A DNA stretch of 12,381 nt from Nitrospirota bacterium. Lineage in GTDB: Bacteria; Nitrospirota; UBA9217. Each line of letters opens with the position of its first letter. Position 1 is the first letter of the stretch. The stretch is taken from contig JAOUEV010000083.1 in NCBI GenBank assembly GCA_029858565.1, positions 1 through 12,381 of the forward strand, written 5' to 3'. The notes under the pieces were generated by a model. The model saw only the letters and a program-made list of their open reading frames with translations. It made no database searches and was not told the origin of the DNA. The translations under genes and the position numbers were made by a program. Below are positions 1,501 to 12,180 of the stretch, piece by piece.

Positions 1501-2031
1501 ATGGAAATCGAGGAGGGCCAGAAGTCCCCCGCCTTCGACAAGGTCATGCAGCTGCTCCAGGCCTACCGATCTGATGTCCAGGACTTCCTGCGCGAGACGG
1601 GCTACCTGCCGAAGAACGTTGAGCCCGCTGCTACCGGCAAGATGCGGAAGGTCCCGGTCGTGTCCTGGGTGACTGCTGGCAAGTGGACCGAAACAGGCGA
1701 GTCGTTCCATCAGGAGGATGCAGTAGACTGGATCGAGAGCGACATCAAGGGAGAGCACAACTTCGCGCTGCGGGTGAAGGGCGATTCAATGGAGCCGGAA
1801 TTTAACGATGGGGATATCATCATCGTCAGCCCAACCGCAAAGGCAGTGACCGGCGACTACATCGTTGCGAAGAATGATGAGGAAGAAGCGACGTTCAAGC
1901 AGTACAAGAAGTTCGATACCACACGAGTCCTTCACCCTCTAAATCCGAAATACCCCGATATCGTTCTGAACAAGGATTTAGAGTATCGAATTGTCGGGGT
2001 GGTGATGGAGAAAAAGAAGCGTTACAAGTAG
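1501..2031 (+). CDS. CI/LexA-like S24 autopeptidase repressor, 5'-truncated within its XRE HTH domain (possible pseudogene)
   Basis: VPVVSWVTAG gives the Ala-Gly cleavage site, FALRVKGDSMEP the catalytic Ser and ATFKQY the catalytic Lys. The N-terminus (HTFI)MEIEEGQKSPAFDKVMQLLQAY is the second half of an XRE HTH. An in-frame stop at 1462-1464 leaves no room for the first helices. Confidence 0.85.
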   Translation: MEIEEGQKSPAFDKVMQLLQAYRSDVQDFLRETGYLPKNVEPAATGKMRKVPVVSWVTAGKWTETGESFHQEDAVDWIESDIKGEHNFALRVKGDSMEPEFNDGDIIIVSPTAKAVTGDYIVAKNDEEEATFKQYKKFDTTRVLHPLNPKYPDIVLNKDLEYRIVGVVMEKKKRYK

Positions 2032-2043
2032 CGGAGGCGCAAA

Positions 2044-2238
2044 ATGAAGAAGGGCGACATTGTGAAATTCAAAGAGACTGTTGATGTAGGCGACGAGAAA
2101 GTGAGAATGCGCCTATTGGAAGATCCTGACGGCGGTCGAGTTTTGGTAGAGGCGTTGGTCGGGATGCAGCTCAATCCGACATACGTTTATCAGGTCAAAG
2201 ATCTTGTCGAATGTGGAGAACCTGTGCTGAATAGCTGA
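2044..2238 (+). CDS. Small hypothetical protein (64 aa), beta-rich, possibly SH3/KOW-like
   Basis: GGAGG RBS just upstream of the ATG; 12 bp after the S24 gene. The MKKGDIVKFK start is typical of small beta-barrel phage/MGE proteins. Confidence 0.6.
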   Translation: MKKGDIVKFKETVDVGDEKVRMRLLEDPDGGRVLVEALVGMQLNPTYVYQVKDLVECGEPVLNS

Positions 2239-2297: not shown

Positions 2298-5200
2298 TTA
2301 TTTCCGATTGCGTACAACAGCTGGTTTTTTCTTCTTTGGAGCAGCCGGTTTAATGTCAGACCCGCCCTTCACCCTATAAACAATTTCAAAATTATTACCT
2401 TGGACATTCTCCGGCTTGGGAAGAAGCAAAGCAAAACCCATGACAGGTTGCAGGGGAATCGCTTTTGTTCCCAATTCATCCATCGGATATGCGGGATATA
2501 ATAACATCACGCCCCTTTTACGATCCTTCTTGAGACCGGCTGTGACAGTGTACCCCTCCCCCTCATTTCGTTCCAAATCAACCAGCCAGTGCGCAAAATC
2601 AGCGTGACGCGGTTCACTGAAAGCTTTGAAACGATCAGTTCCTGCTATCACAGTACGACCAAAGCTTGAAAGTTCGTGGCCACCTATGTTCCACACAGGA
2701 AAACGAGTTTTTGTAAGTTGGGGAATTACAATCACCCACTTAGGAATCTCTTTTCTATTCTTATGCAGAAAATTGAGTTCTGCCTGTATTGGAGAAATCT
2801 TATCAGGCCAAGGATACCTTTTGAGAATATTAACCAGTGTATCGGCACCCAATTCCAACCACTTAATCTGGAACGCAGTACCAGGTTTCCCAACCTTACC
2901 CTCGTGCATTTTAGCACTTAAGAGCGCTTTTTCAAAAATTGCCGCACCTATCTTTCGTGATGTGGCATCCATTTGGCGCTTAATCGGTTCGCGCCATTTT
3001 CCGTAAAAGCTGGCAGATACAAGTTCAGCATGATACATTTTATTTGCTGCTGCCGGTCTGAGTCTGGGATAACTATTGTACACAAGCGCAGGAACTTCGA
3101 GTGGCGTCAGATATTTACCATCGGGGCCCGGTTCACTGTACTGATCAAGTTGGCTGCGGAACTTCTCCTCGTCCTGGCACATAGCACCAAATGCCTCGTA
3201 AAGATCCATATTTTGCTTACCGTCATTTTCCATCCTGCCCATATACAAGCGAACCAAATCACGGTACCCCTTACGAAAACCGAACCACCTTCCCATCTGC
3301 ATTAATGTATCCGCTGCCTGAGCCCTTCTCCTAAAGTAAGATACTGTTAGGCCTTCAATCGTATAACCCCGAGAGAGTTTCGCACCGCCAACAATAATTT
3401 TCCATACTTTGTCCTGTAAATCAAAATCTGGCGTATCCGCATCCCTTTCACCATTTACTATTAACACTGGCTTATTATCACCGCCGATATTATCGATTGC
3501 TGCCCCAAGATATTTCTTGAGTGAATTAAAGCTTTCTGGAACAGGTAGTCCTGCTGCACGATCACGGTCGCGACGCCACAACTCGGCGAAGTCATTATCA
3601 TAGAGCATCTTTAATCGTGCCATACCTGCAGTGGAATCATATCCTTTGTGCTTCCACAGTTTTTCGAGAAGTTCTTTTTTATTCCGCTGGTCTATTTGCA
3701 GGTGTGACTCATGCACAAGCATTGTATGATGCCTGTATTCACCTGCGACACCCCTGCTTTTTCTGAACAATTTTATGGCTCCTGCAAGAACAAACGCATC
3801 CATAGCCTCCAGAAGTCTATCGATATCATTCCTGTCTTCACTATTCCATGACATACTTCCAGAGTAGCAGTTATCAGGCAGGAGAATCGTAGCGTCTCCA
3901 TCTTCGGCAATATCCTGATAATTACGTGGAATGCTTCTTAGATGTGCTGACTTATTTGAAATACCTGAGCTCCGTGTCTCAAAATCATGGAAATCGGTTA
4001 CCCCCATATACGCCTCGGGCTTGCGCAGAGAAAGAATATAATGCTTTGGATAAATATCATCTGAATCCGCCCGACTGACAAATACATTCGCGATAGGCGT
4101 GGCTGTATATCCAACATACTGTGCACGAGGCAACTTCTTAAGTAGATCTACTATCAGTTTATTAATAGCAGTCCTGCTTTTCTCATCAGTTATTTTCTTC
4201 GGGTTTAATGTATTGACTGATGCTTGATCGGATTCATCATCAATAATTAATGCCGGGGCATAATCGCGGGATTCTCTGTTAACTTCAGACAGATCTTTTA
4301 CAAGTTGCTTTAAGCGTAATTTATTCTTTTTAACGACAATAAGTCGTGCATTTGCATGGCCCAAATTCTCACGATAATATAGCGGTTTATTCTTTTCCTT
4401 TTTCTCAAACTCCAAGGCGCTTATTCCTTGCGCCAAGCTGCGAAAGTCATCCACAGCTCCTGTCAACCTGAAGATATCAACCGAACCAAGCCTGCTTGGC
4501 AAGGATCCATGGCTCATAAATCTGGGCCAATCTCTATCAAGGCTGTAGTCATGATCAGCCACTTCCGTTTCTTCATTTCCGCGTAAAATATTCTCTTTAC
4601 CGACGAGATCCATGTCGAGACGACGCTGTGTCTGGTTACGCAGCAAATCCATTGTCCCGGACAGCACTATTATTAGTCGATACCCGGCATCAATTGCCTT
4701 GGCAATCACTCCGGTAAAATGAGTCGTTTTCCCGCTTTGAACATATCCGACCACTAGCCCGCGACTGCGACGATCTTTCAGCAACCAAGGACAGTCAAGT
4801 CGCTCAACAACACTATATGTTGACTGATCCAGCAGCTCAAGGGATTCCGGAGTCCACTTCTTTGTCGTGCCAAGATAGCTCTTGAACTGCCCCCAATAAA
4901 AGTCGTTCGTACTTACAGCCGCATACCAGTTTTCGTGCTTGCCAGGATCCTCGATCAGAATCGGGGGAGGGCTATCGTAGAAAGGCAGCACATCACTTAT
5001 GATGGTTTTGCTCTCGGAGCTTATTTTAAGCAATTTGTAAATTAACTGCCGTCTACTCTCGCTATTGGGTTGCGTGCTTCCTGTCCACGTTGACGTCCTC
5101 GTATGATCCCATTCAGCAAGCTTCCTGTGCAGTTCTGATCTAACAAGGTCGTTTGGATCGCTTGAGACCCTCTGTATAACCTGCTTTTCAGTAACCTCTT

Positions 5201-5312
5201 TTTTCAATGAGGATTGCTTTGAATAAAAAGATAGAGCAGCGGAAAGAGGCATGGGAGAGGCATTCATCCCTCCGAGGGCGGCTTTAACGATATCATAGAC
5301 AACATCAGTCAT
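2298..5312 (-). CDS. Z1-domain-containing SF2 helicase/ATPase (R-M/MORC-associated), 1004 aa
   Basis: Walker A GLVVGYVQSGKT, Walker B LIIDDESDQAS and motif III YVGYTATPIANVF. Z1-region motifs HHTMLVHES, IIVGGAKLSRGYTIEGLTVSYF and DTLMQMGRWFGFR. AGGAG RBS in the 9-bp gap after the upstream gene. Confidence 0.92.
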   Translation of the reverse strand: MTDVVYDIVKAALGGMNASPMPLSAALSFYSKQSSLKKEVTEKQVIQRVSSDPNDLVRSELHRKLAEWDHTRTSTWTGSTQPNSESRRQLIYKLLKISSESKTIISDVLPFYDSPPPILIEDPGKHENWYAAVSTNDFYWGQFKSYLGTTKKWTPESLELLDQSTYSVVERLDCPWLLKDRRSRGLVVGYVQSGKTTHFTGVIAKAIDAGYRLIIVLSGTMDLLRNQTQRRLDMDLVGKENILRGNEETEVADHDYSLDRDWPRFMSHGSLPSRLGSVDIFRLTGAVDDFRSLAQGISALEFEKKEKNKPLYYRENLGHANARLIVVKKNKLRLKQLVKDLSEVNRESRDYAPALIIDDESDQASVNTLNPKKITDEKSRTAINKLIVDLLKKLPRAQYVGYTATPIANVFVSRADSDDIYPKHYILSLRKPEAYMGVTDFHDFETRSSGISNKSAHLRSIPRNYQDIAEDGDATILLPDNCYSGSMSWNSEDRNDIDRLLEAMDAFVLAGAIKLFRKSRGVAGEYRHHTMLVHESHLQIDQRNKKELLEKLWKHKGYDSTAGMARLKMLYDNDFAELWRRDRDRAAGLPVPESFNSLKKYLGAAIDNIGGDNKPVLIVNGERDADTPDFDLQDKVWKIIVGGAKLSRGYTIEGLTVSYFRRRAQAADTLMQMGRWFGFRKGYRDLVRLYMGRMENDGKQNMDLYEAFGAMCQDEEKFRSQLDQYSEPGPDGKYLTPLEVPALVYNSYPRLRPAAANKMYHAELVSASFYGKWREPIKRQMDATSRKIGAAIFEKALLSAKMHEGKVGKPGTAFQIKWLELGADTLVNILKRYPWPDKISPIQAELNFLHKNRKEIPKWVIVIPQLTKTRFPVWNIGGHELSSFGRTVIAGTDRFKAFSEPRHADFAHWLVDLERNEGEGYTVTAGLKKDRKRGVMLLYPAYPMDELGTKAIPLQPVMGFALLLPKPENVQGNNFEIVYRVKGGSDIKPAAPKKKKPAVVRNRK

Positions 5313-5321
5313 TGAATTCTC

Positions 5322-6332
5322 CTAAACTAATTTTGCGTTAAATGAAGAATGTGTAGATAGTATTCCCATACCCTCTAGATTCACACCATAAGAAACCCGA
5401 TCAATCCGCTGAATTAGATCCGAGCCCAAAGTATTAAGGGTGTCAGCAGTTATTGCAGGGAATTTCTTATCAACAGGTATTAGAGATGGCGGAGTTCGCA
5501 AAGTATAGCTGTCAATGTAATGTGATGCATGCTCCTCTCGCCAACCACAACTGAATAATCTCTCTTCTATCAATGCGGATGCGGAAGGACTTTTCTTTGC
5601 AGACACTGACAAGATTGCTGACACCGCTGCAGCTAATGTTCGTCCTTCAGGCGCTGGAGCCGGCGTGAATTGTATCGATAGAATGTAAAGTTGCCTGCCC
5701 TTCTTTGGTACAGCCTGCGTAAGGGAACCTATCTGATGAATACGTTTTTCTTTAAGTGTGGATTTAACCTCTATATCCGTCCTTGCCAGGGTAAAATCGT
5801 GCTCTTCTGCACCGGGCCCCTTCCATGCATCTGCTGCCGTCGACCAACCTGATCGACGAGCAAGGTAATCAAGAAACCATAGTTCACCTAACAAGCCGAT
5901 TTGGCGCTCATCTGAGAGAATTGAGAGTTTTTGAAGAAGACTCGCCCAAGCATGGAGAGTTTTTATTATTGCCGAACCAACATCCTGCTTGTCAACCTGC
6001 ACACGATCAGCAATATCTCTTACAAGGTTATAGAATTCCCTAAAGAGCTGACAATTGCTTGTAGATATTTCCACAACGTTCCGACTGGATATCTCTTTTC
6101 TTATGATTGACACTTCGCCGAGCGGACTTACCGGCATTACCTTCGGTAAGGAATAAATTCTCACACCAATACGCGTGCCTGAAGTGTCAATGAATGTGTC
6201 AACGCGGGGCTCACCGGGAATTCTTTCAAGATAGGGGACGCCCTCTTCAATTCGATCTGAAAAAATTTCCCAGTGAACATGCCTGGGATTTCTTTTATAC
6301 GTACGAGTGTTTTTTATGAGGTTGTTTTTCAT
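5322..6332 (-). CDS. PD-(D/E)XK motif protein (DUF4420 family), putative nuclease
   Basis: LSDERQIGLLGELWFL, WKGPGAEEHDF, IEVKST and IHQIGSLTQ match the DUF4420 pattern (GL.GEL..L / W.GP.....DF / IEVK(S/T)T). The start overlaps the MORC stop (ATGA). Confidence 0.88.
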   Translation of the reverse strand: MKNNLIKNTRTYKRNPRHVHWEIFSDRIEEGVPYLERIPGEPRVDTFIDTSGTRIGVRIYSLPKVMPVSPLGEVSIIRKEISSRNVVEISTSNCQLFREFYNLVRDIADRVQVDKQDVGSAIIKTLHAWASLLQKLSILSDERQIGLLGELWFLDYLARRSGWSTAADAWKGPGAEEHDFTLARTDIEVKSTLKEKRIHQIGSLTQAVPKKGRQLYILSIQFTPAPAPEGRTLAAAVSAILSVSAKKSPSASALIEERLFSCGWREEHASHYIDSYTLRTPPSLIPVDKKFPAITADTLNTLGSDLIQRIDRVSYGVNLEGMGILSTHSSFNAKLV

Positions 6333-7855
6333 CGATTCGCTTCGAGATTGATCGCCTTTACCAAGGCATCATTGATAACATCAAGCTTTTTCTTCTCAAG
6401 CTGCGTTTCATTAACAAGACGAAAGGTATCATTCAACAGAAAATAGAGCAACGTCCTAATGACAGGGATATCAGCGGCTCCTGCCGCATCTCCGTCAAGA
6501 AGGACATCTCGGTATTTTCTATTCAATATAAGTTCCTTATTATCTCGGTCGACCTCAAAAAATCGATTTCCTCGTATTTTATCCCATCTTAGAGCGATAC
6601 CATTACCCTGGCGCAACGGGATTGCAGCTTGCAGAATAACGTCTCGAACGGGAGCCGGGACACCTGTTCCAGGCTTCAGTATGGGGGGGAGTTTCTTCTT
6701 GCCCTTTGCACGATATACCTCCTCCGCTGTTTCCGTATACTGCTTGAAGGTGGTACCATCCTTGGCCCGCGCCTTGGCAAGATAGCCTGTAAAAGATGCC
6801 GGAGCATCAACCGCGGCCTTATTTGGCCGTACCTGAAGGTAACCCGCGTATGAGTCAGGTATATCAATTTCGACGCGTGCAAGACTCATATGTGGATCCA
6901 TTGTTCCGATCCAGCCATTCCATCCGCCGTCCTGGATAAGCCGATTGTGACGATAAAAGAAAAAGCCTTGGTGTTCAGCCACCTTCCCGCCACCCAGCTT
7001 GTATCCCTCATCCTTTGATTTCTTGGGCCAAATATGCGCGCGCAAAACCAGCGACCCCAGTTTTTTTGATGCACTCATGTAAAAGTTCTTGGGGTAACCT
7101 TTTACCGCTGTTATTACGGGAAACGGATTGAGAGCTTCAACTCGGCTGGGCAGAAACGTCGATCCACTTGAAATATCCTCTACGTCCATTTGAATCGATA
7201 CCGCTCGTTTCTGCAGGAAGCGATGAAGTTTAAGACCAAGATGATTCCTGATCTTACGCTTGATTTCTTCCAAATAAGCATCCGGATTTCCGTGCAGTCT
7301 CTGAAAATCCCTCACGTTATCCCATTGTATTACTGTCCCGACGGACAGTGTCCCAAGAGAACCCCAGGACCTGGTCAGATGTGCTTTTACCGAATCCGGT
7401 CCAAGTACAGCGCATTGCCAATTCCGCTTCTTAATCCCCGCCTCGGTCCACTGTCTTCCAACATATCCCTTCCCTTTGCGCCTCGACAGAACAGAAACCG
7501 TATCAGCCTGCGTCAGAGATGCCGTCTTCATGCCAATACCAAACATCCCCAGTGCTTCCTGGTTATAATCACGTTTACGTGCGAATTGCATTGCGCGATC
7601 GATTTCGTCATCATCCATGCCGTGACCGTTGTCGACAACGCAAAGACTAATTAGACGATTCTTTTCTCGAAAAATCCGGATTAGCACTTTTCCCGCATCA
7701 GCGTCAATGGAGTTGTCCACCAGATCTGCAATGCTCGCCTCAATTGGATAATCAACCTTGAGCGCATCAAGAACATCGGGAGTAGGTTGTATCGTTTTAG
7801 TTGATGTTATTTCAAGTTCATTTACCTTCAAAGACTTCTGGTCCGACTTCTTCAT
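6329..7855 (-). CDS. Prokaryotic MORC/MutL-like GHKL ATPase (HATPase_c_3 + S5-like domain)
   Basis: N-box IADLVDNSIDA, G1 VVDNGHGMD, G2 LGMFGIGMKTAS and G3 GTVIQW. S5-region motif QGFFFYRHNRLIQDGGW...LARVEIDIP. GGAG RBS. Confidence 0.88.
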   Translation of the reverse strand: MKKSDQKSLKVNELEITSTKTIQPTPDVLDALKVDYPIEASIADLVDNSIDADAGKVLIRIFREKNRLISLCVVDNGHGMDDDEIDRAMQFARKRDYNQEALGMFGIGMKTASLTQADTVSVLSRRKGKGYVGRQWTEAGIKKRNWQCAVLGPDSVKAHLTRSWGSLGTLSVGTVIQWDNVRDFQRLHGNPDAYLEEIKRKIRNHLGLKLHRFLQKRAVSIQMDVEDISSGSTFLPSRVEALNPFPVITAVKGYPKNFYMSASKKLGSLVLRAHIWPKKSKDEGYKLGGGKVAEHQGFFFYRHNRLIQDGGWNGWIGTMDPHMSLARVEIDIPDSYAGYLQVRPNKAAVDAPASFTGYLAKARAKDGTTFKQYTETAEEVYRAKGKKKLPPILKPGTGVPAPVRDVILQAAIPLRQGNGIALRWDKIRGNRFFEVDRDNKELILNRKYRDVLLDGDAAGAADIPVIRTLLYFLLNDTFRLVNETQLEKKKLDVINDALVKAINLEANR

Positions 7856-7906
7856 TGATTCTCCGATTAATCAGACGTGTCAATCAACTACAGCATCAGT
7901 CTGCAA

Positions 7907-8329
7907 TTATACATTATCTAGAAACGACCGCATACGGATTTCAAGCCGTTTCATTTTTATCGAATCTTTTATCCAACACTCCCATACTACAAGCGCATTC
8001 CATCCCAGCTTTTTAAGATCACGCCTATTACGAAGATCGCGCGCTCTATTTGATTCTCTTTTCTGTTCCCAAAACGCAGCGTTTGTTTGCGGAATCACCC
8101 GACCGTATCTGCACCGGTGCCTATGCCAGAAACATCCATGAACAAATATAACTTTTCTAAATTGGGAAAATACAAGGTCAGGCTTTCCTGGCAGATTCTT
8201 GCGGTGCAGCCTATAACGATAACCTAGGGCTCGCACCATTTTTCTGACAACCATTTCGGGCTTTGTATCTTTGCTCTTTATACGCGACATACACTTTCGG
8301 CGTTGCTCCGGAGTCAGTACGTCGGTCAT
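7907..8329 (-). CDS. vsr: Very short patch repair (G:T mismatch) endonuclease
   Basis: MTDVLTPEQRRKCMSRIKSKDTKPE, LPGKPDLVF, IFVHGCFWHRH, N..FW..K...N..RD and LGW...VVWEC are all present. The gene is adjacent to a C5 methyltransferase system. Confidence 0.95.
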   Translation of the reverse strand: MTDVLTPEQRRKCMSRIKSKDTKPEMVVRKMVRALGYRYRLHRKNLPGKPDLVFSQFRKVIFVHGCFWHRHRCRYGRVIPQTNAAFWEQKRESNRARDLRNRRDLKKLGWNALVVWECWIKDSIKMKRLEIRMRSFLDNV

Positions 8330-9498
8330 GATTGCGGTATCACTCCATGTATGAAGCTGATAAACCCGTCAAGACTCAGTAATTTAATACCAGAGTCAGC
8401 CGGATATTGTTTTTGTATTAACTCAGGAACGATTAAAGACACCTTGCTCTTATGCATTTCTGTGAGCTGATTTTTCGATATACCTGCCTGTGTGGTAAGA
8501 ATGTGCTTGTGAGGGATGCGCTTCGCTTCATTCAGGACCTGTCGCCAGCGATCCTTACAGGTTGTTTTCACGCCAACGATAAATAATTTTGAGGTCGGAT
8601 AAGAGTTATCGTCATATTGAGCCTTGCCGGGAATAACTATATCCGGTTTGCCATCTATATCAGGCCGCATATCGAAAGGCACACCGTTTTTTCTCAAGAT
8701 GAATTCAACATGATTTTCCAGTGAACGACCCGCTCGGGCTTTTCGTCGATTCATCAGCTTCGCAGCGGTTTTAATGAAATCATCAACATCCTTGAACAGT
8801 CGCGTGATCTCATTCTGGCAAAGTAGACGTTCCACAATTCGGAACAAGGCATACTCCGACTCAAGATATCTTATTAATTGTACGTCTGATTTTTTACCTG
8901 TGATATCCGGAAGGCATTCAAGGATTGCCATCCTTGCCTGCTCTGAAAACTGCGAGGTCGACGGGAAAGCCGTCAGGACCCGGCTGAACTCAGCATAATG
9001 TCTGCTTATGCACTCTTCTTCAGACTCCGGCGATGGCGGAGCCGACGCATCATAAAGAGCCCATGTACCGATTACATCAACGCCAAGAGCCGCCTGCAGT
9101 TCTTCAATATCATCATCACGATCGAGATCATAGCCGTGAATAGTTGATTCGTCCTGCGGGACCAGCATTAGGAGATCGCCGATGCAGTCAGGTGTGAGAA
9201 AGGGAAAGTCTCTGCCAAATCGAGTAATTCGATATTCGCTTCTAGTCCCCTTTCCATACCATTTCACCATTGATTCAGTTTCGCGTCCATCCTGCCAGAG
9301 AATCTTAACCGGATGATTGTGATTCTGTCCTTTGTCGGCGGGATGTGGCGTGAACAGGTGAGCTGCTTTTTTAGGAAGGTAATAGCCGGTCTGGTGACTT
9401 CCCGTGGTACCGACATCGTTCGGAGAAATGAATTTAAGAAGGGCCTTCCCGTGCTGAATCGCATCTGCAATCGCAAGCTCGAGAATGGTTGAACTCAT
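8326..9498 (-). CDS. EcoRII-like type IIE restriction endonuclease (N-terminal B3-like effector domain + PD-(D/E)XK catalytic domain), probable CCWGG
   Basis: The N-domain KFISPNDVGTTGSHQTGYYLPK ... RSEYRITRFG resembles EcoRII-N. The C-domain has NRRKARAGRSLENH, KPDIVIPG, VKTTCKDRWRQVLNEA and HILTTQAGIS, as in EcoRII-C. ATGA overlaps at both ends. Confidence 0.92.
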   Translation of the reverse strand: MSSTILELAIADAIQHGKALLKFISPNDVGTTGSHQTGYYLPKKAAHLFTPHPADKGQNHNHPVKILWQDGRETESMVKWYGKGTRSEYRITRFGRDFPFLTPDCIGDLLMLVPQDESTIHGYDLDRDDDIEELQAALGVDVIGTWALYDASAPPSPESEEECISRHYAEFSRVLTAFPSTSQFSEQARMAILECLPDITGKKSDVQLIRYLESEYALFRIVERLLCQNEITRLFKDVDDFIKTAAKLMNRRKARAGRSLENHVEFILRKNGVPFDMRPDIDGKPDIVIPGKAQYDDNSYPTSKLFIVGVKTTCKDRWRQVLNEAKRIPHKHILTTQAGISKNQLTEMHKSKVSLIVPELIQKQYPADSGIKLLSLDGFISFIHGVIPQS

Positions 9499-10712
9499 CG
9501 GGCGGCCTCCGCGTAACTCTGTTTACTGTTCTTCTTTCTATTCTTGCCCTTTAATAATCCATTCATATTGACATGCCAGTACAGAACCTCGACGATTTGC
9601 CTGCCAACAGCTTCAACTACTGTCGGCACAACAGCGTTACCAAATTGTTTGTAGGCCTGAGTATCTGATACTGCGATCTTAAGTTCGTCAGGAAAGCCCA
9701 TGAGCCGCGCTGCCTCACGGGGCGTCAGCCTCCTCGGATTTTTCCCCTTTCCCTGCGGGATAAGGATTTCCGACCCGTCCTTGTAATAGCGCGCGCTCAA
9801 TGTCCTCGTGATTCCATCAAGGTCACAGAGACCGAAGCCGAACCCGTTCCCCTTTTCCTTGTGCTTCTGAGCATACTGCTGAAGATATGACCACAGATGA
9901 TTCGACAATGTATATTTCGGATCAGGATTTTCCTCGAGGATATCCCTCAGACGATATTTTACAGAAGGTTTTTCCGGAAATTTAAAATCAACTCTGTCCC
10001 CGAACACCTTTCTGTCAAAACATACGATAATAATACGCTCTCGGTGCTGTGGGACGTATGCACTCGCATCTATGACCTGCGGGAAAACATGATATCCGAG
10101 ATCCTTGAGTGTGCTGTCAATAACAGCCCAAGTCTTCTTGCCGTCATGAGAAAGCAGATTTTTCACATTTTCAAGAAACAATACCGGAGGACGCTTTGCT
10201 TCGATAATAGTGGCGAGATGAAAAAACAGTGTTCCTTGGGTCGCGTCCTTGAACCCATGCGCTTTTCCAAGACTATTCTTTTTGGATACCCCTGCAATCG
10301 AAAAGGGCTGACAGGGAAAACCGGCAGCCATAACATCATGATCCGGGATATCTGACGGATTCAATTCTCTGATATCACCATGAGGCAGATCACCGAACCA
10401 AGTCTGGTACGTTTTCTGTGCATAATGATCCCATTCACTGGTAAATACACAGCGACCACCGGCCCTCTGAAGACCCAGTCTGAAACCGCCTATACCAGCG
10501 AACAGATCAATAAACGTGAACGGTATACGCCCAGGCGAAGGTTGAGAAGCAGGAGCAAAGCGATCAAAAAGGGAGGGCTGACCATAAGTGCTTGCACTTT
10601 CAAGGACCTGATGAACGAATTCCTGTTGGGTCATCCTGAGTCTGTCCCTTTCATCCTCAATCCATTTATGGACAGTGTCAGGGACAGAGCGAATAAGAAT
10701 ATCTTTCGACAT
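9495..10712 (-). CDS. dcm: DNA (cytosine-5)-methyltransferase, Dcm/M.EcoRII-like (probable CCWGG), with an N-terminal RHH-like extension
   Basis: Motif I FIDLFAGIGG, IV GFPCQPFS, VI LENVKNL, VIII PQHRERI, IX RRLTPREAARLMGF and X QAYKQFGNAV. The TRD GNGFGFG...RTLSARYYKDGSEILI is Dcm/EcoRII-like. The start is placed at the ATG at 10712 (GGAG upstream); the track's TTG start at 10748 abuts the -10 box. Confidence 0.95.
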   Translation of the reverse strand: MSKDILIRSVPDTVHKWIEDERDRLRMTQQEFVHQVLESASTYGQPSLFDRFAPASQPSPGRIPFTFIDLFAGIGGFRLGLQRAGGRCVFTSEWDHYAQKTYQTWFGDLPHGDIRELNPSDIPDHDVMAAGFPCQPFSIAGVSKKNSLGKAHGFKDATQGTLFFHLATIIEAKRPPVLFLENVKNLLSHDGKKTWAVIDSTLKDLGYHVFPQVIDASAYVPQHRERIIIVCFDRKVFGDRVDFKFPEKPSVKYRLRDILEENPDPKYTLSNHLWSYLQQYAQKHKEKGNGFGFGLCDLDGITRTLSARYYKDGSEILIPQGKGKNPRRLTPREAARLMGFPDELKIAVSDTQAYKQFGNAVVPTVVEAVGRQIVEVLYWHVNMNGLLKGKNRKKNSKQSYAEAAR

Positions 10713-10739
10713 AGGCTTTTTATCTCCGGGGGGAATTTT

Positions 10740-10780
10740 TGATATCAATGCTATCAGATATACCCAGGGGTGTCAATGCT
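10740..10780 (-). promoter_or_regulatory. Operon promoter with a CCWGG site in the spacer and candidate operator boxes
   Basis: Minus strand reads TTGACA (10776-10771)-17 bp-TAGCAT (10753-10748) with a TGn extension. CCAGG lies at 10764-10768. Tandem 8-mers TGATATCA (10740-10747) and TGCTATCA (10749-10756). Direct repeat TCAATGCT at 10745 and 10773. Confidence 0.72.
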
Positions 10781-10830: not shown

Positions 10831-10857
10831 AAAAAGGCCTTGGGGTGCCCCAAGGCC
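10831..10857 (-). terminator. Rho-independent terminator after the integrase
   Basis: Minus strand reads GGCCTTGGG-GCAC-CCCAAGGCC followed by TTTTT, about 30 bp after the integrase stop. Confidence 0.8.
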
Positions 10858-10885: not shown

Positions 10886-12100
10886 TCACCCCGCCATTTT
10901 TTGGAACGGCAGGATCTTCGCGCCCGCCTTAATCTCATCAAGGTAATCGCTCCAGAGTTGCATCATCTTCCGCCGTTCGTCCAAGTGGGCCGTACGGTTG
11001 TAAGCGCGGCCGTTCGGATCGCGTACAGCGTGCGCAAGTTGGTGCTCGATGTACTCAGGGCGGACGTGGAGCACCTCGTCGAGTATCGTGCGGGCCATGG
11101 CCCGGAAGCCGTGGCCGGTCATCTCATCCGTGCCGTATCCCATGCGCCGCAGCGCGGCGAGGATCGCGTTGTTGCTCATCGGGCGCTGATTAGTGCGGGG
11201 GCTCGGGAACACGTACTTGCTGCGTCCGGTCAGCGGCTGGAGGGATTGCAGCACCTCGACAGCCTGGCGTGAGAGCGGCACGATGTGGGGCTGCCGCATC
11301 TTCATCTTTTCAGCGGGAATCGACCAGATGCCCGCCTCGAGGTCGAACTCGGCCCATTCAGCGTTCCGCAGTTCCCCGGGCCGGACGAAGAACATGCCCG
11401 CGAGTTGCAGGGCGCATTTCACAACGAACGATCCGACATAGCCGTCGATCGCGCGGAGCAGGGCGGCAACGTCCTTCGGGTCCGTGAGCGCCGCAAGATG
11501 GGTCTTCGCTGCCGGCGGCAGCGCACCCTTGAGGTCAGAGGAACAGTCGCGCTCCGCCCGGCCTGTCGCCACGGCGTAGCGGAAGACCTGTCCGCAGATG
11601 CTCTTTACGCGGTGGGCAGTTTCCAATGCTCCCCGCGACTCCACGCGCCGCAGGACGGTCAGCAACTCCGGCGCTTTGATCTCGGCAATCGGCCGCTCCC
11701 CGATCCAGGGGAAGGCGTCCCGCTCAAGCCGCTTGATCGTAGTTTCTGCATGGACCGGCGTCCAGCGGGGAGAGAACTTCTCGTGCCACTCCCGCGCGAT
11801 GACCTCGAAGCTGTTCTCCACCTGGCCCCGCGCCGCCTTCTGTGCCTTGCGGACCTCGCCGGGGTCTATGCCGTTCGCGACCTGCTTCCGCGCATCGTCG
11901 CGCCGCACCCGTGCGTCTCCGAGGGATATTTCGGGGTAGGTGCCGAGGGAGATGAGCTTCTCCTTGTCGTCGAAGCGGTACTTGAATCGCCACCACTTCC
12001 CGCCATTCGCAGCGACCTGCAGATAGAGGCCCTGGCCGTCGTTCAGCTTATAGGGCTTGGCTTTCGCTTTCGCGCTCTTGACCTTGATATCGGATAACAC
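10886..12100 (-). CDS. int: P4-family tyrosine integrase with N-terminal arm-DNA-binding domain, 404 aa
   Basis: Arm-binding domain DGQGLYLQV...GKWWRFKYRF...KEKLISLGTYPEISL. Catalytic R (VRPGELR), HxxR (GHGFR), H (QLAH) and Y (RAYNR). The start is placed at GTG 12100 (GGAGG 10 nt upstream, giving MLSDIKVK) rather than 12157. Confidence 0.95.
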   Translation of the reverse strand: MLSDIKVKSAKAKAKPYKLNDGQGLYLQVAANGGKWWRFKYRFDDKEKLISLGTYPEISLGDARVRRDDARKQVANGIDPGEVRKAQKAARGQVENSFEVIAREWHEKFSPRWTPVHAETTIKRLERDAFPWIGERPIAEIKAPELLTVLRRVESRGALETAHRVKSICGQVFRYAVATGRAERDCSSDLKGALPPAAKTHLAALTDPKDVAALLRAIDGYVGSFVVKCALQLAGMFFVRPGELRNAEWAEFDLEAGIWSIPAEKMKMRQPHIVPLSRQAVEVLQSLQPLTGRSKYVFPSPRTNQRPMSNNAILAALRRMGYGTDEMTGHGFRAMARTILDEVLHVRPEYIEHQLAHAVRDPNGRAYNRTAHLDERRKMMQLWSDYLDEIKAGAKILPFQKMAG

Positions 12101-12117
12101 AGGGGAAACGCCTCCAA

Positions 12118-12180
12118 TTGGGGTAACTGCCGTTTTCACTGTTGCTGTTACCCCCAAAGTTACCCCAAAGTTACCCCAAA
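12118..12180. repeat. Three tandem GTTACCCC(C)AAA repeats plus one inverted copy: probable integrase arm-type binding sites
   Basis: GTTACCCCCAAA at 12147-12158, GTTACCCCAAA at 12159-12169 and 12170-12180, and inverted TTGGGGTAAC at 12118-12127. They lie between the att site and the int start, where P4-type arm sites are found. Confidence 0.75.

Follow-up and report, generated by a model that had tools for sequence, protein, structure and literature searches.

This study concerns a 12,381-bp stretch of DNA from a Nitrospirota bacterium (contig JAOUEV010000083.1 of assembly GCA_029858565.1; hereafter the window, which is the whole of its contig) and, within it, an 8.5-kb operon of six co-oriented minus-strand genes encoding a cytosine methyltransferase (MTase), an EcoRII-like restriction endonuclease (REase), a Vsr endonuclease and a trio composed of a MORC ATPase, a DUF4420 protein and a Z1-domain helicase. 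The reading that we favour, and hold to be rather probable, is that the six genes form one transcription unit in which two restriction modules depend on a single CCWGG-type 5-methylcytosine (5mC) MTase, carried on an acquired island. It draws on direct observations, namely the genes present and the layout of the operon, the intact motifs, the clade to which the trio belongs, the statistics of the gene neighbourhoods and the modular ancestry of the parts. On this reading the REase occupies a variable slot upstream of the MORC gene as an occasional accessory and is not a built-in subunit of the trio, and the locus is a further example of a known, predicted kind of system with an uncommon accessory gene, the novelty of which had been overstated in a preliminary description of this DNA. 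The promoter and the genes of the operon are as follows:

10748..10776, minus strand: sigma-70-type promoter, TTGACA-17 nt-TAGCAT with an upstream TG (promoter scan)
9495..10712, minus strand: C5 cytosine MTase of the Dcm/EcoRII family, with the open reading frame (ORF) listed to a TTG at 10748 (PF00145, 6.9e-89)
8326..9498, minus strand: EcoRII-like type IIE REase, 390 aa, with an effector domain at the N-terminus (EcoRII-N PF09217, 4.1e-19) and a PD-(D/E)XK catalytic domain at the C-terminus (EcoRII-C PF09019, 4.2e-54)
7907..8329, minus strand: Vsr very-short-patch-repair endonuclease, 140 aa (Pfam, 2e-34; TIGR00632, 144.3 bits against a cut-off of 97.85)
6329..7855, minus strand: MORC-family GHKL ATPase, 508 aa (HATPase_c_3 PF13589, 7.5e-25)
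5322..6332, minus strand: DUF4420 PD-(D/E)XK protein, 336 aa (PF14390, 5.5e-42)
2298..5312, minus strand: superfamily 2 (SF2) helicase/translocase with a Z1 domain, 1004 aa (PF10593, 5.4e-54)

The preliminary description of this arrangement, namely six co-oriented genes behind one promoter with three ATGA overlaps and two short gaps, proved exact when compared with the ORF listing and the sequence. The minus-strand tetranucleotide ATGA is present at all three overlaps (9495-9498, 8326-8329 and 6329-6332), vsr and the MORC gene are separated by 51 nt, and the DUF4420 and Z1 genes by 9 nt. The operon promoter agrees with the consensus at 10 of 12 positions and is among the three top-scoring sites of the window. 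It had also been stated that the operon lacks an internal terminator, and this holds: the three terminator-like sites located within it (8846-8828, 10533-10517 and 6177-6162) are all weak, comprising 5-7 pairs with 3 GC pairs, and lie within coding sequence, and the window in total contains 9 such sites compared to 11.5 +/- 3.1 in shuffled sequences. We infer that the six genes are co-transcribed. Because the -10 hexamer ends at position 10748, on the listed TTG start of the MTase gene, the ATG at 10712, which is preceded by GGAGA 9 nt upstream, is probably the true start, yielding a product of 405 aa. The promoter spacer, between the -35 and -10 elements, contains at 10764-10768 a CCWGG site that reads CCTGG on the coding strand, and methylation of this site by the MTase of the operon could provide feedback on expression.

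According to the favoured reading, the first module is the MTase-REase-Vsr cassette, in which the MTase would mark host DNA, the type IIE REase would cut unmethylated sites when it is able to bind more than one of them, and Vsr would repair the T:G mismatches that result from deamination of 5mC, thereby offsetting the cost of the MTase. The second module, consisting of the MORC, DUF4420 and Z1 proteins, belongs to an AIPR-less clade of the restriction-like systems predicted by Iyer et al. 2008 (PMC2292703). Since no separate MTase accompanies the trio here, the EcoRII-family MTase is its putative self-mark. In analogy with the CglI and NgoAVII systems, the Z1 ATPase would hydrolyse ATP and translocate on unmethylated DNA, the DUF4420 protein would cleave, and a MORC dimer would clamp or license the complex. 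The trio would then act as an ATP-dependent nuclease restrained by the MTase of the operon, with the EcoRII-like REase as a second nuclease that acts independently and is governed by the same mark. The biochemical roles proposed for the trio and its anti-phage function are argued from related systems and are to be read as predictions.

The domain calls of the preliminary description hold, as does its statement that the catalytic motifs are intact, which were found in the Z1, MORC and DUF4420 proteins. The Z1 protein contains GKT at residue 194, DDESD at 358, TATP at 403 and the Z1 signature DTLMQMGRWFG at 668, and the SF2 core of its structure model (predicted local distance difference test score, pLDDT, of 75) resembles SF2 translocases, including HsdR of EcoR124I. 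In the MORC protein an alignment of 110 sequences revealed the N-box (D44/N48/D51), D75-G77-G79, G103-G106-G108-K110 and the S5 lysine K346, of which the N-box, G1, G2 and K346 are conserved in at least 90% of these relatives; its best sequence matches in the PDB are the N-terminal domains of MORC2, MORC3 and MutL. The DUF4420 protein possesses the motif E150, D179, E188-V-K190 in an alignment of 74 sequences, and E150-D179-E188xK190 is invariant in 39 sequences. Its structure model is confident (pLDDT 92.4), and a Foldseek comparison of this model with the PDB returned no significant match, the best E-value being 0.024 with weak rows for EcoRV; PDB sequence searches with the Z1 and DUF4420 proteins likewise returned no match. 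A predicted complex of Z1 residues 1-620 with the DUF4420 protein gave a median score of 0.31 against a mark of 0.32 and was used neither for nor against binding.

Residues 19-386 of the REase align with EcoRII (1NA6, residues 20-399) at 1.6e-46, with the PD, KTTCKDRWRQ and NEA stretches maintained; the catalytic residues of EcoRII are, as we take them, D299, K324 and E337. The REase is approximately 34% identical to plasmid-borne EcoRII-like genes, and its CCWGG specificity and its requirement for two or more sites are predicted on the basis of this homology. The MTase is 48% identical to Dcm of Escherichia coli K-12, including the target-recognition stretch (TRTLSARYYKDG-EILI), and would probably share its CCWGG specificity. 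Among NCBIfam models it scores 316.6 with TIGR00675 (cut-off 100.65) and 364.6 with the Dcm subfamily model NF007772 (cut-off 710). Approximately 60 aa precede its PF00145 domain (residues 1-60, 10533-10712, minus strand), and this N-terminal extension appears, by the look of the sequence only, to be of a strand-helix-helix (ribbon-helix-helix-like) type. N-terminal extensions are also present on the Dcm of one surveyed relative (L105) and on that of Corynebacterium diphtheriae BH8, where the available description gives an Xre helix-turn-helix (HTH); the extension in the window may be an autoregulatory domain. Pfam searches with the MTase N-terminus, the Z1 N- and C-termini, the DUF4420 N-terminus and the MORC C-terminus yielded nothing below E = 0.06, and no phospholipase D (PLD) domain was detected by Pfam in any of the six proteins.

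The position of the trio among its relatives was established from 160 Z1 loci sampled from species-representative genomes (at least 80, mostly actinomycetes) and metagenomes (at least 80). These loci were found by a scan with a Z1 alignment, a scan of genome contigs with a single Z1 protein having matched no relative, and their ORFs were searched with the window proteins together with rebuilt AIPR and EcoRII profiles; relatives of Z1 at E <= 1e-20 number more than 7,700. The MORC gene lies just upstream in 126 of the 160 loci. In 79 loci DUF4420 is followed by Z1, as in the window, and in 19 the order is reversed, while no adjacent DUF4420 gene was detected in the remaining 62, which are mostly from Streptomyces and in which MORC abuts Z1. 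A tree was constructed from the window and those 147 loci whose Z1 ORF reaches 800 aa, the 13 loci with too short an ORF being dropped, and it contains a split with a support of 1.0 that separates all 19 Z1-DUF4420 loci, along with 4 loci of undetermined order, from every one of the 70 DUF4420-Z1 loci. AIPR occurs downstream of DUF4420 in 10 of the 19 Z1-DUF4420 loci; of the 70 DUF4420-Z1 loci just 4 contain it, and there it stands upstream of MORC. The order MORC-Z1-DUF4420-AIPR which the preliminary description had given as usual for the MutL-Z1-AIPR (Mza) system thus matches an Mza-like clade, whereas the absence of AIPR and the order MORC-DUF4420-Z1, which it had treated as deviations from Mza, are the norm of the large and separate clade to which the window belongs. 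Among the Streptomyces loci in which MORC abuts Z1 (within L004-L082; for example L030:7089-8099 and L041:6994-8019) the upstream ORF often encodes approximately 340 aa, and these loci without DUF4420 may represent a distinct subtype with another partner protein.

These data bear on the idea that the trio is an inactive remnant of an mzaABCDE system, stripped of MzaA and of its AIPR effector, MzaE, and lying by chance beside a working EcoRII restriction-modification (R-M) system. A distant kinship with Mza, as previously noted, is certainly present: the best PADLOC and NCBIfam matches of the trio are MzaB (MORC, PADLOC 2.9e-22), MzaC (Z1, 1.5e-66) and MzaD (DUF4420, 1.9e-15), with a further PADLOC match to 'Helicase_II' (3.9e-32) on Z1, and neither an AIPR gene in the window nor a sigma70 domain in the window ORFs scanned was found. 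The NCBIfam scores nevertheless fall far under the equivalog cut-offs (95 against 850 bits for MzaB, 272.7 against 1500 for MzaC and 90.1 against 420 for MzaD), all catalytic motifs are intact, the overlapping frames are kept, and the grouping of the window with the 70 DUF4420-Z1 loci, 66 of which also lack AIPR, and apart from the 19 Mza-like loci largely refutes a remnant, which we regard as very improbable. The only AIPR gene of this genome (G000:C62:48213-49904; L002) stands alone between secA and the gene for a group II intron reverse transcriptase/maturase.

The trio is normally located beside a cytosine MTase and Vsr. A Dcm gene is present within 8 kb in 109 of the 160 loci and a Vsr gene in 92, and of the 83 loci flanked on each side by 6 kb or more of sequence 73 have a Dcm gene and 63 a Vsr gene; the neighbourhood survey that the preliminary description had proposed thus confirmed a recurrent association with 5mC genes. 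This association is no mark of novelty, having been published before: Iyer et al. 2008 (PMC2292703) described frequent cytosine methylases and Vsr beside the trio and proposed an R-M role, and Miller et al. 2022 (PMC9523054) described a system whose core is made up of Z1 and PD-(D/E)XK proteins together with a cytosine MTase. The Dcm of the window is 54-58% identical to that of loci L105, L042 and L098, the trios of the latter two having no EcoRII homologue, so that the same MTase family serves trios without any REase. One of the earlier suggestions was that the trio is a backup layer which shares the CCWGG self-mark and acts when the R-M system is evaded or inhibited; it is the shared methyl mark that is plausible, since the only C5-MTase on the contig is of the EcoRII family and Dcm accompanies most of the fully flanked loci.

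The constancy of Dcm and Vsr as partners would also be expected if the trio were a repair kit, in which MORC (MutL-like), DUF4420 (with a MutH/Vsr-like restriction-endonuclease (RE) fold) and Z1 (in the role of UvrD) helped Vsr to correct Dcm-caused T:G mismatches and so limited the mutational cost of the R-M system. Vsr is encoded directly upstream of MORC in the window and in 7 of 107 evaluable loci (126 minus the 19 at a contig edge), and the passages of Iyer et al. 2008 (PMC2292703) on these genes draw a parallel to MutL-Vsr, MutH and UvrD. We nonetheless consider this explanation unlikely: Vsr is undetected in 20 of the 83 fully flanked loci, the locus resides on a mobile island that also carries an integrase gene and genes for a toxin-antitoxin pair, and the accessory genes of related loci are typical defence effectors (AIPR, HEPN and GIY-YIG nucleases). 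Moreover, the related Mza is a validated anti-phage system as cited by Miller et al. 2022 (PMC9523054), and the names of the NCBIfam models read 'MZA anti-phage system'.

The EcoRII-like REase is the unusual part of the locus, yet it is not without precedent, the same set of genes, an EcoRII-like REase among them, having been published for C. diphtheriae BH8 (Puigbò et al. 2017, PMC5379612). In the survey an EcoRII homologue was detected near the trio in a single locus (1 of 160, L105). There a Dcm-Vsr-REase block is located 3.7 kb upstream of the trio and does not form one operon with it; the stretch between them holds an uncharacterised gene, the gene for a type IV enzyme resembling AspBHI, and an ORF on the reverse strand. 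The type IV enzyme (L105:4860-6161; RE_AspBHI_N and Mrr_cat) is 5mC-dependent, and in L105 methyl-dependent and methyl-sensitive nucleases are thus found side by side with Dcm. The reverse survey gave a similar picture: when 400 further genomes from this phylum were sampled, an EcoRII-C gene was present in 13, in none of which was a Z1 gene found beside the REase, and only one of the 13 has any Z1 gene, on another contig. Among plasmid records, relatives of the REase were found in 2594 and relatives of Z1 in 21, with no shared genera among those listed.

The relatives of the two parts also differ. Those of the REase descend from 96% identity through 85, 85, 81, 76 and 67% and continue downward, 5982 of the 8000 scored reaching E <= 1e-30, whereas the DUF4420 protein, which is similar in size, has one relative at 88% and none other above 49%, with 259 at E <= 1e-20; the relatives of Z1 stand at 78% and then 51%. 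As many close relatives of the REase contrast with a single close relative of DUF4420, a recent modular joining of REase and trio is suggested. For both the 88% DUF4420 and the 78% Z1 relative the longest contig is 27,828 bp, a value with which no REase relative is listed, providing a weak hint that the nearest relative of the trio is without this REase.

The slot in which the REase resides was delimited by considering the gene immediately upstream of MORC, a rule which replaced a listing of unassigned neighbours (435 ORFs) that was too noisy in high-GC loci. In the 126 loci in question this position is a contig edge in 19, holds no ORF in 17, and is otherwise occupied by Vsr (7), Dcm (7), AIPR (2) or other ORFs (74). 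Among the 25 of 50 Pfam families listed for these 74 ORFs are SEC-C (16), DUF499 (5), HEPN_Swt1 (4) and sigma70/ankyrin (3), along with single cases of others. In L109 the gene between Vsr and MORC encodes a GIY-YIG motif and matches RE_Eco29kI marginally, at 31.1 bits (cut-off 30.8), and in the Arthrobacter plasmid p2MP the slot is filled by a 1096-aa sacsin-domain protein. Large HEPN_Swt1 and DUF499 proteins are encoded directly upstream of MORC in two loci of the clade of the window (L106:4063-7479 and L078:3715-7368), and it is possible that these are abortive-infection-type accessories in the role of AIPR. The REase of the window fits such a set of interchangeable accessory genes in the slot upstream of MORC.

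It was earlier proposed that MORC and Z1 loop or translocate DNA to satisfy the two-site requirement of the REase. In its general form this would be an integrated machine in which the REase is a working subunit, with either the motor or clamp joining two CCWGG sites or the B3-like N-domain of the REase supplying site recognition to the trio. Beyond the single promoter, the ATGA overlaps and the lack of a convincing internal terminator, such a machine has a parallel in the R-protein of CglI, which likewise pairs a B3 reader with a Z1 ATPase (PMC4267653), and EcoRII-like nucleases are described for another MORC operon type by Iyer et al. 2008 (PMC2292703). The combination also recurs in distant lineages, in L105 (nearby, not in one operon) and in C. 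diphtheriae BH8 (PMC5379612). The proposal is opposed by the near absence of EcoRII homologues beside the trio in either survey, by the different relatives of the two parts, by the trios of L042 and L098 which have the same MTase family and no REase, and by L105, where two genes and a reverse-strand ORF part the REase from MORC. In addition, the REase of the window aligns end-to-end with stand-alone EcoRII and bears no added domain. We found no support for the two-site proposal in particular, and the integrated machine as a whole is in our estimation improbable.

Several observations weigh against the reading of two independent modules under one mark. Translational coupling and a single promoter would fit an integrated six-protein machine equally well, and a possible -10 element (TATAAT), unflagged by the promoter scan, overlaps the stop codon of vsr, from which a separate internal promoter for the trio is possible. 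No domain that would read sequence or methylation was found in the trio proteins by Pfam sub-region scans and a Foldseek search with DUF4420, a point which also counts in favour of the integrated machine. Nor does similarity of the trio proteins track the type of Dcm: Z1 of L105, L042 and L098 is 36-39% identical to that of the window, while the closest Z1 proteins, those of L003 (42%) and L021 (41%), are accompanied by an unrelated Dcm, a comparison which does not support a strict pairing of the trio with CCWGG. The contrast between REase and DUF4420 relatives may in part be a sampling effect, the closest relatives of the REase being located on metagenome contigs of 3-6 kb. The genome exhibits no avoidance of CCWGG (observed/expected 1.03-1.04), which gives no sign of long-standing restriction pressure and is neutral for a recent arrival. 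Finally, literature searches found no experimental test of any member of the trio clade, and a preprint of October 2026 still terms the role of prokaryotic MORC 'proposed'.

A bolder proposal is that the REase, through its B3-like N-domain or through the breaks that it makes, aims or loads the reader-less trio and thereby triggers ATP-driven, processive degradation of DNA. We consider this a long shot; if REase and trio do cooperate, the conventional nucleases in the slot (those of the window, L105, BH8 and L109) would mark a general design of 'type II nuclease plus MORC-Z1 motor'.

Beyond the operon promoter lies an integrase gene, which marks the edge of the island and is closed by a strong hairpin:

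10836..10857, minus strand: terminator-like hairpin of 9 pairs, 7 of them GC, separating the integrase gene from the promoter of the operon (terminator scan)
10886..12157, minus strand: tyrosine integrase at the island edge (Pfam Arm-DNA-bind_3, Phage_int_M and Phage_integrase)

The six genes are uniform in composition, with a GC content of 44-47% and 37-47% at third codon positions (GC3), in a genome of 3.92 Mb and 57% GC, and a search of 40 relatives, among them 3 from its genus and 21 from its family, did not reveal the locus. The block is foreign, horizontally acquired and strain-specific, and came or lived as a unit. The integrase gene, at 63% GC and 80% GC3, is above both the six genes and the genome. 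The window contains no tRNA gene, so that the attachment site lies outside this contig. The other flank carries an S24 peptidase gene and a DUF4258/MqsA-like pair. The S24 (LexA/UmuD-like) peptidase of 176 aa, whose gene has a GC content of 54% and in which no HTH was detected, is followed by an ORF of 64 aa (together 1501-2238, plus strand); both run towards the end of the Z1 gene, in convergent orientation, and with a GC3 of 73% they differ from the operon. The DUF4258 gene (915-1232) and the gene for an MqsA-like zinc ribbon (676-948), both on the minus strand, overlap by approximately 34 nt and probably constitute the toxin-antitoxin module of the island (676-1232). Elsewhere the genome contains another C5-MTase gene at G000:C98:19327-20632, with an adjacent vsr-like stretch, and three more loci on C107, C79 and C46, and it therefore carries several 5mC systems.

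Bacterial MORC proteins are the presumed ancestors of the eukaryotic MORC ATPases, which respond to DNA methylation. The locus described here is compact, its motifs are intact and it has a single MTase of probable CCWGG specificity that Dcm of E. coli may mimic, making it a convenient test case. It is suited to three questions: whether methylation protects against the trio, which protein reads the mark, and what the REase contributes to defence. MORC-DUF4420-Z1 systems are widespread and were predicted to be restriction-like in 2008 (Iyer et al., PMC2292703).

Among known systems, the third type of MORC operon of Iyer et al. 2008 (PMC2292703), as described there, comprises a superfamily II helicase with the C-terminal signature DThhQXuRhFG and an RE-fold protein with the motif E-D-ExK. 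It has in common with the window the MORC GHKL and S5 ATPase, the Z1 signature (DTLMQMGRWFG in the window) and the E-D-ExK protein, together with cytosine MTase and Vsr neighbours, which in the window lie within the same operon. The passages on this type give no EcoRII-like REase, such nucleases being given for the SWI2/SNF2 type instead. Restriction of unmodified foreign DNA by the trio clade is a prediction by analogy. The 'type I' system of Miller et al. 2022 (PMC9523054), as outlined in that paper, comprises six genes including a Z1 protein of approximately 925 aa, a PD-(D/E)XK protein (printed as 'DUF4220') and a cytosine MTase, has no AIPR, and is strongly tied to DNA-repair endonucleases, while the AIPR-bearing 'type II' resembles Mza. 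The island of C. diphtheriae BH8 (CDBH8_0988-0994; PMC5379612), known here by its description, is like the window in being strain-specific and in combining an EcoRII-like REase, a Z1 helicase, an N-extended Dcm and DUF4420, and unlike it in that the MTase is fused to an Xre HTH and that three genes are 'unclassified'; Puigbò et al. 2017 (PMC5379612) left undecided in their account whether it reflects chance clustering or a multicomponent system.

Mza shares with the window distant homologues of MORC (MzaB), Z1 (MzaC) and DUF4420 (MzaD), with Dcm and Vsr nearby. The Mza-like loci of the survey differ in the order MORC-Z1-DUF4420, in the AIPR gene downstream in 10 of 19, and in a sigma70 and ankyrin gene upstream of MORC in two (L144 and L152), which matches the 'mzaA (a sigma factor)' mentioned by Miller et al. 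2022 (PMC9523054); their Z1 proteins are 27-33% identical to that of the window and form a separate clade. In equivalog scores, gene order, AIPR (MzaE) and sigma-like MzaA alike, the window departs from Mza. The analogy of the Z1 ATPase with CglI and NgoAVII, already drawn in the preliminary description, holds in that these systems, as reported for CglI by Zaremba et al. 2014 (PMC4267653), combine a 5mC MTase with an SF2 and Z1 ATPase which needs a separate nuclease partner: the CglI ATPase hydrolyses ATP only with that partner and unmethylated sites, dimerises via Z1 and binds the nuclease via its DEAD domain. Unlike the window, their nuclease consists of B3 and PLD domains, the N-protein is much shorter, and neither MORC nor DUF4420 is part of the systems as described. 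EcoRII R-M itself corresponds to the first module in its full-length REase match (1NA6) and its Dcm-family MTase; the EcoRII-type system of plasmid pNDM-MAR has its R and M genes in convergent orientation, with no vsr listed, whereas in the window the M, R and vsr genes are co-directional and overlapping, and are followed by the trio.

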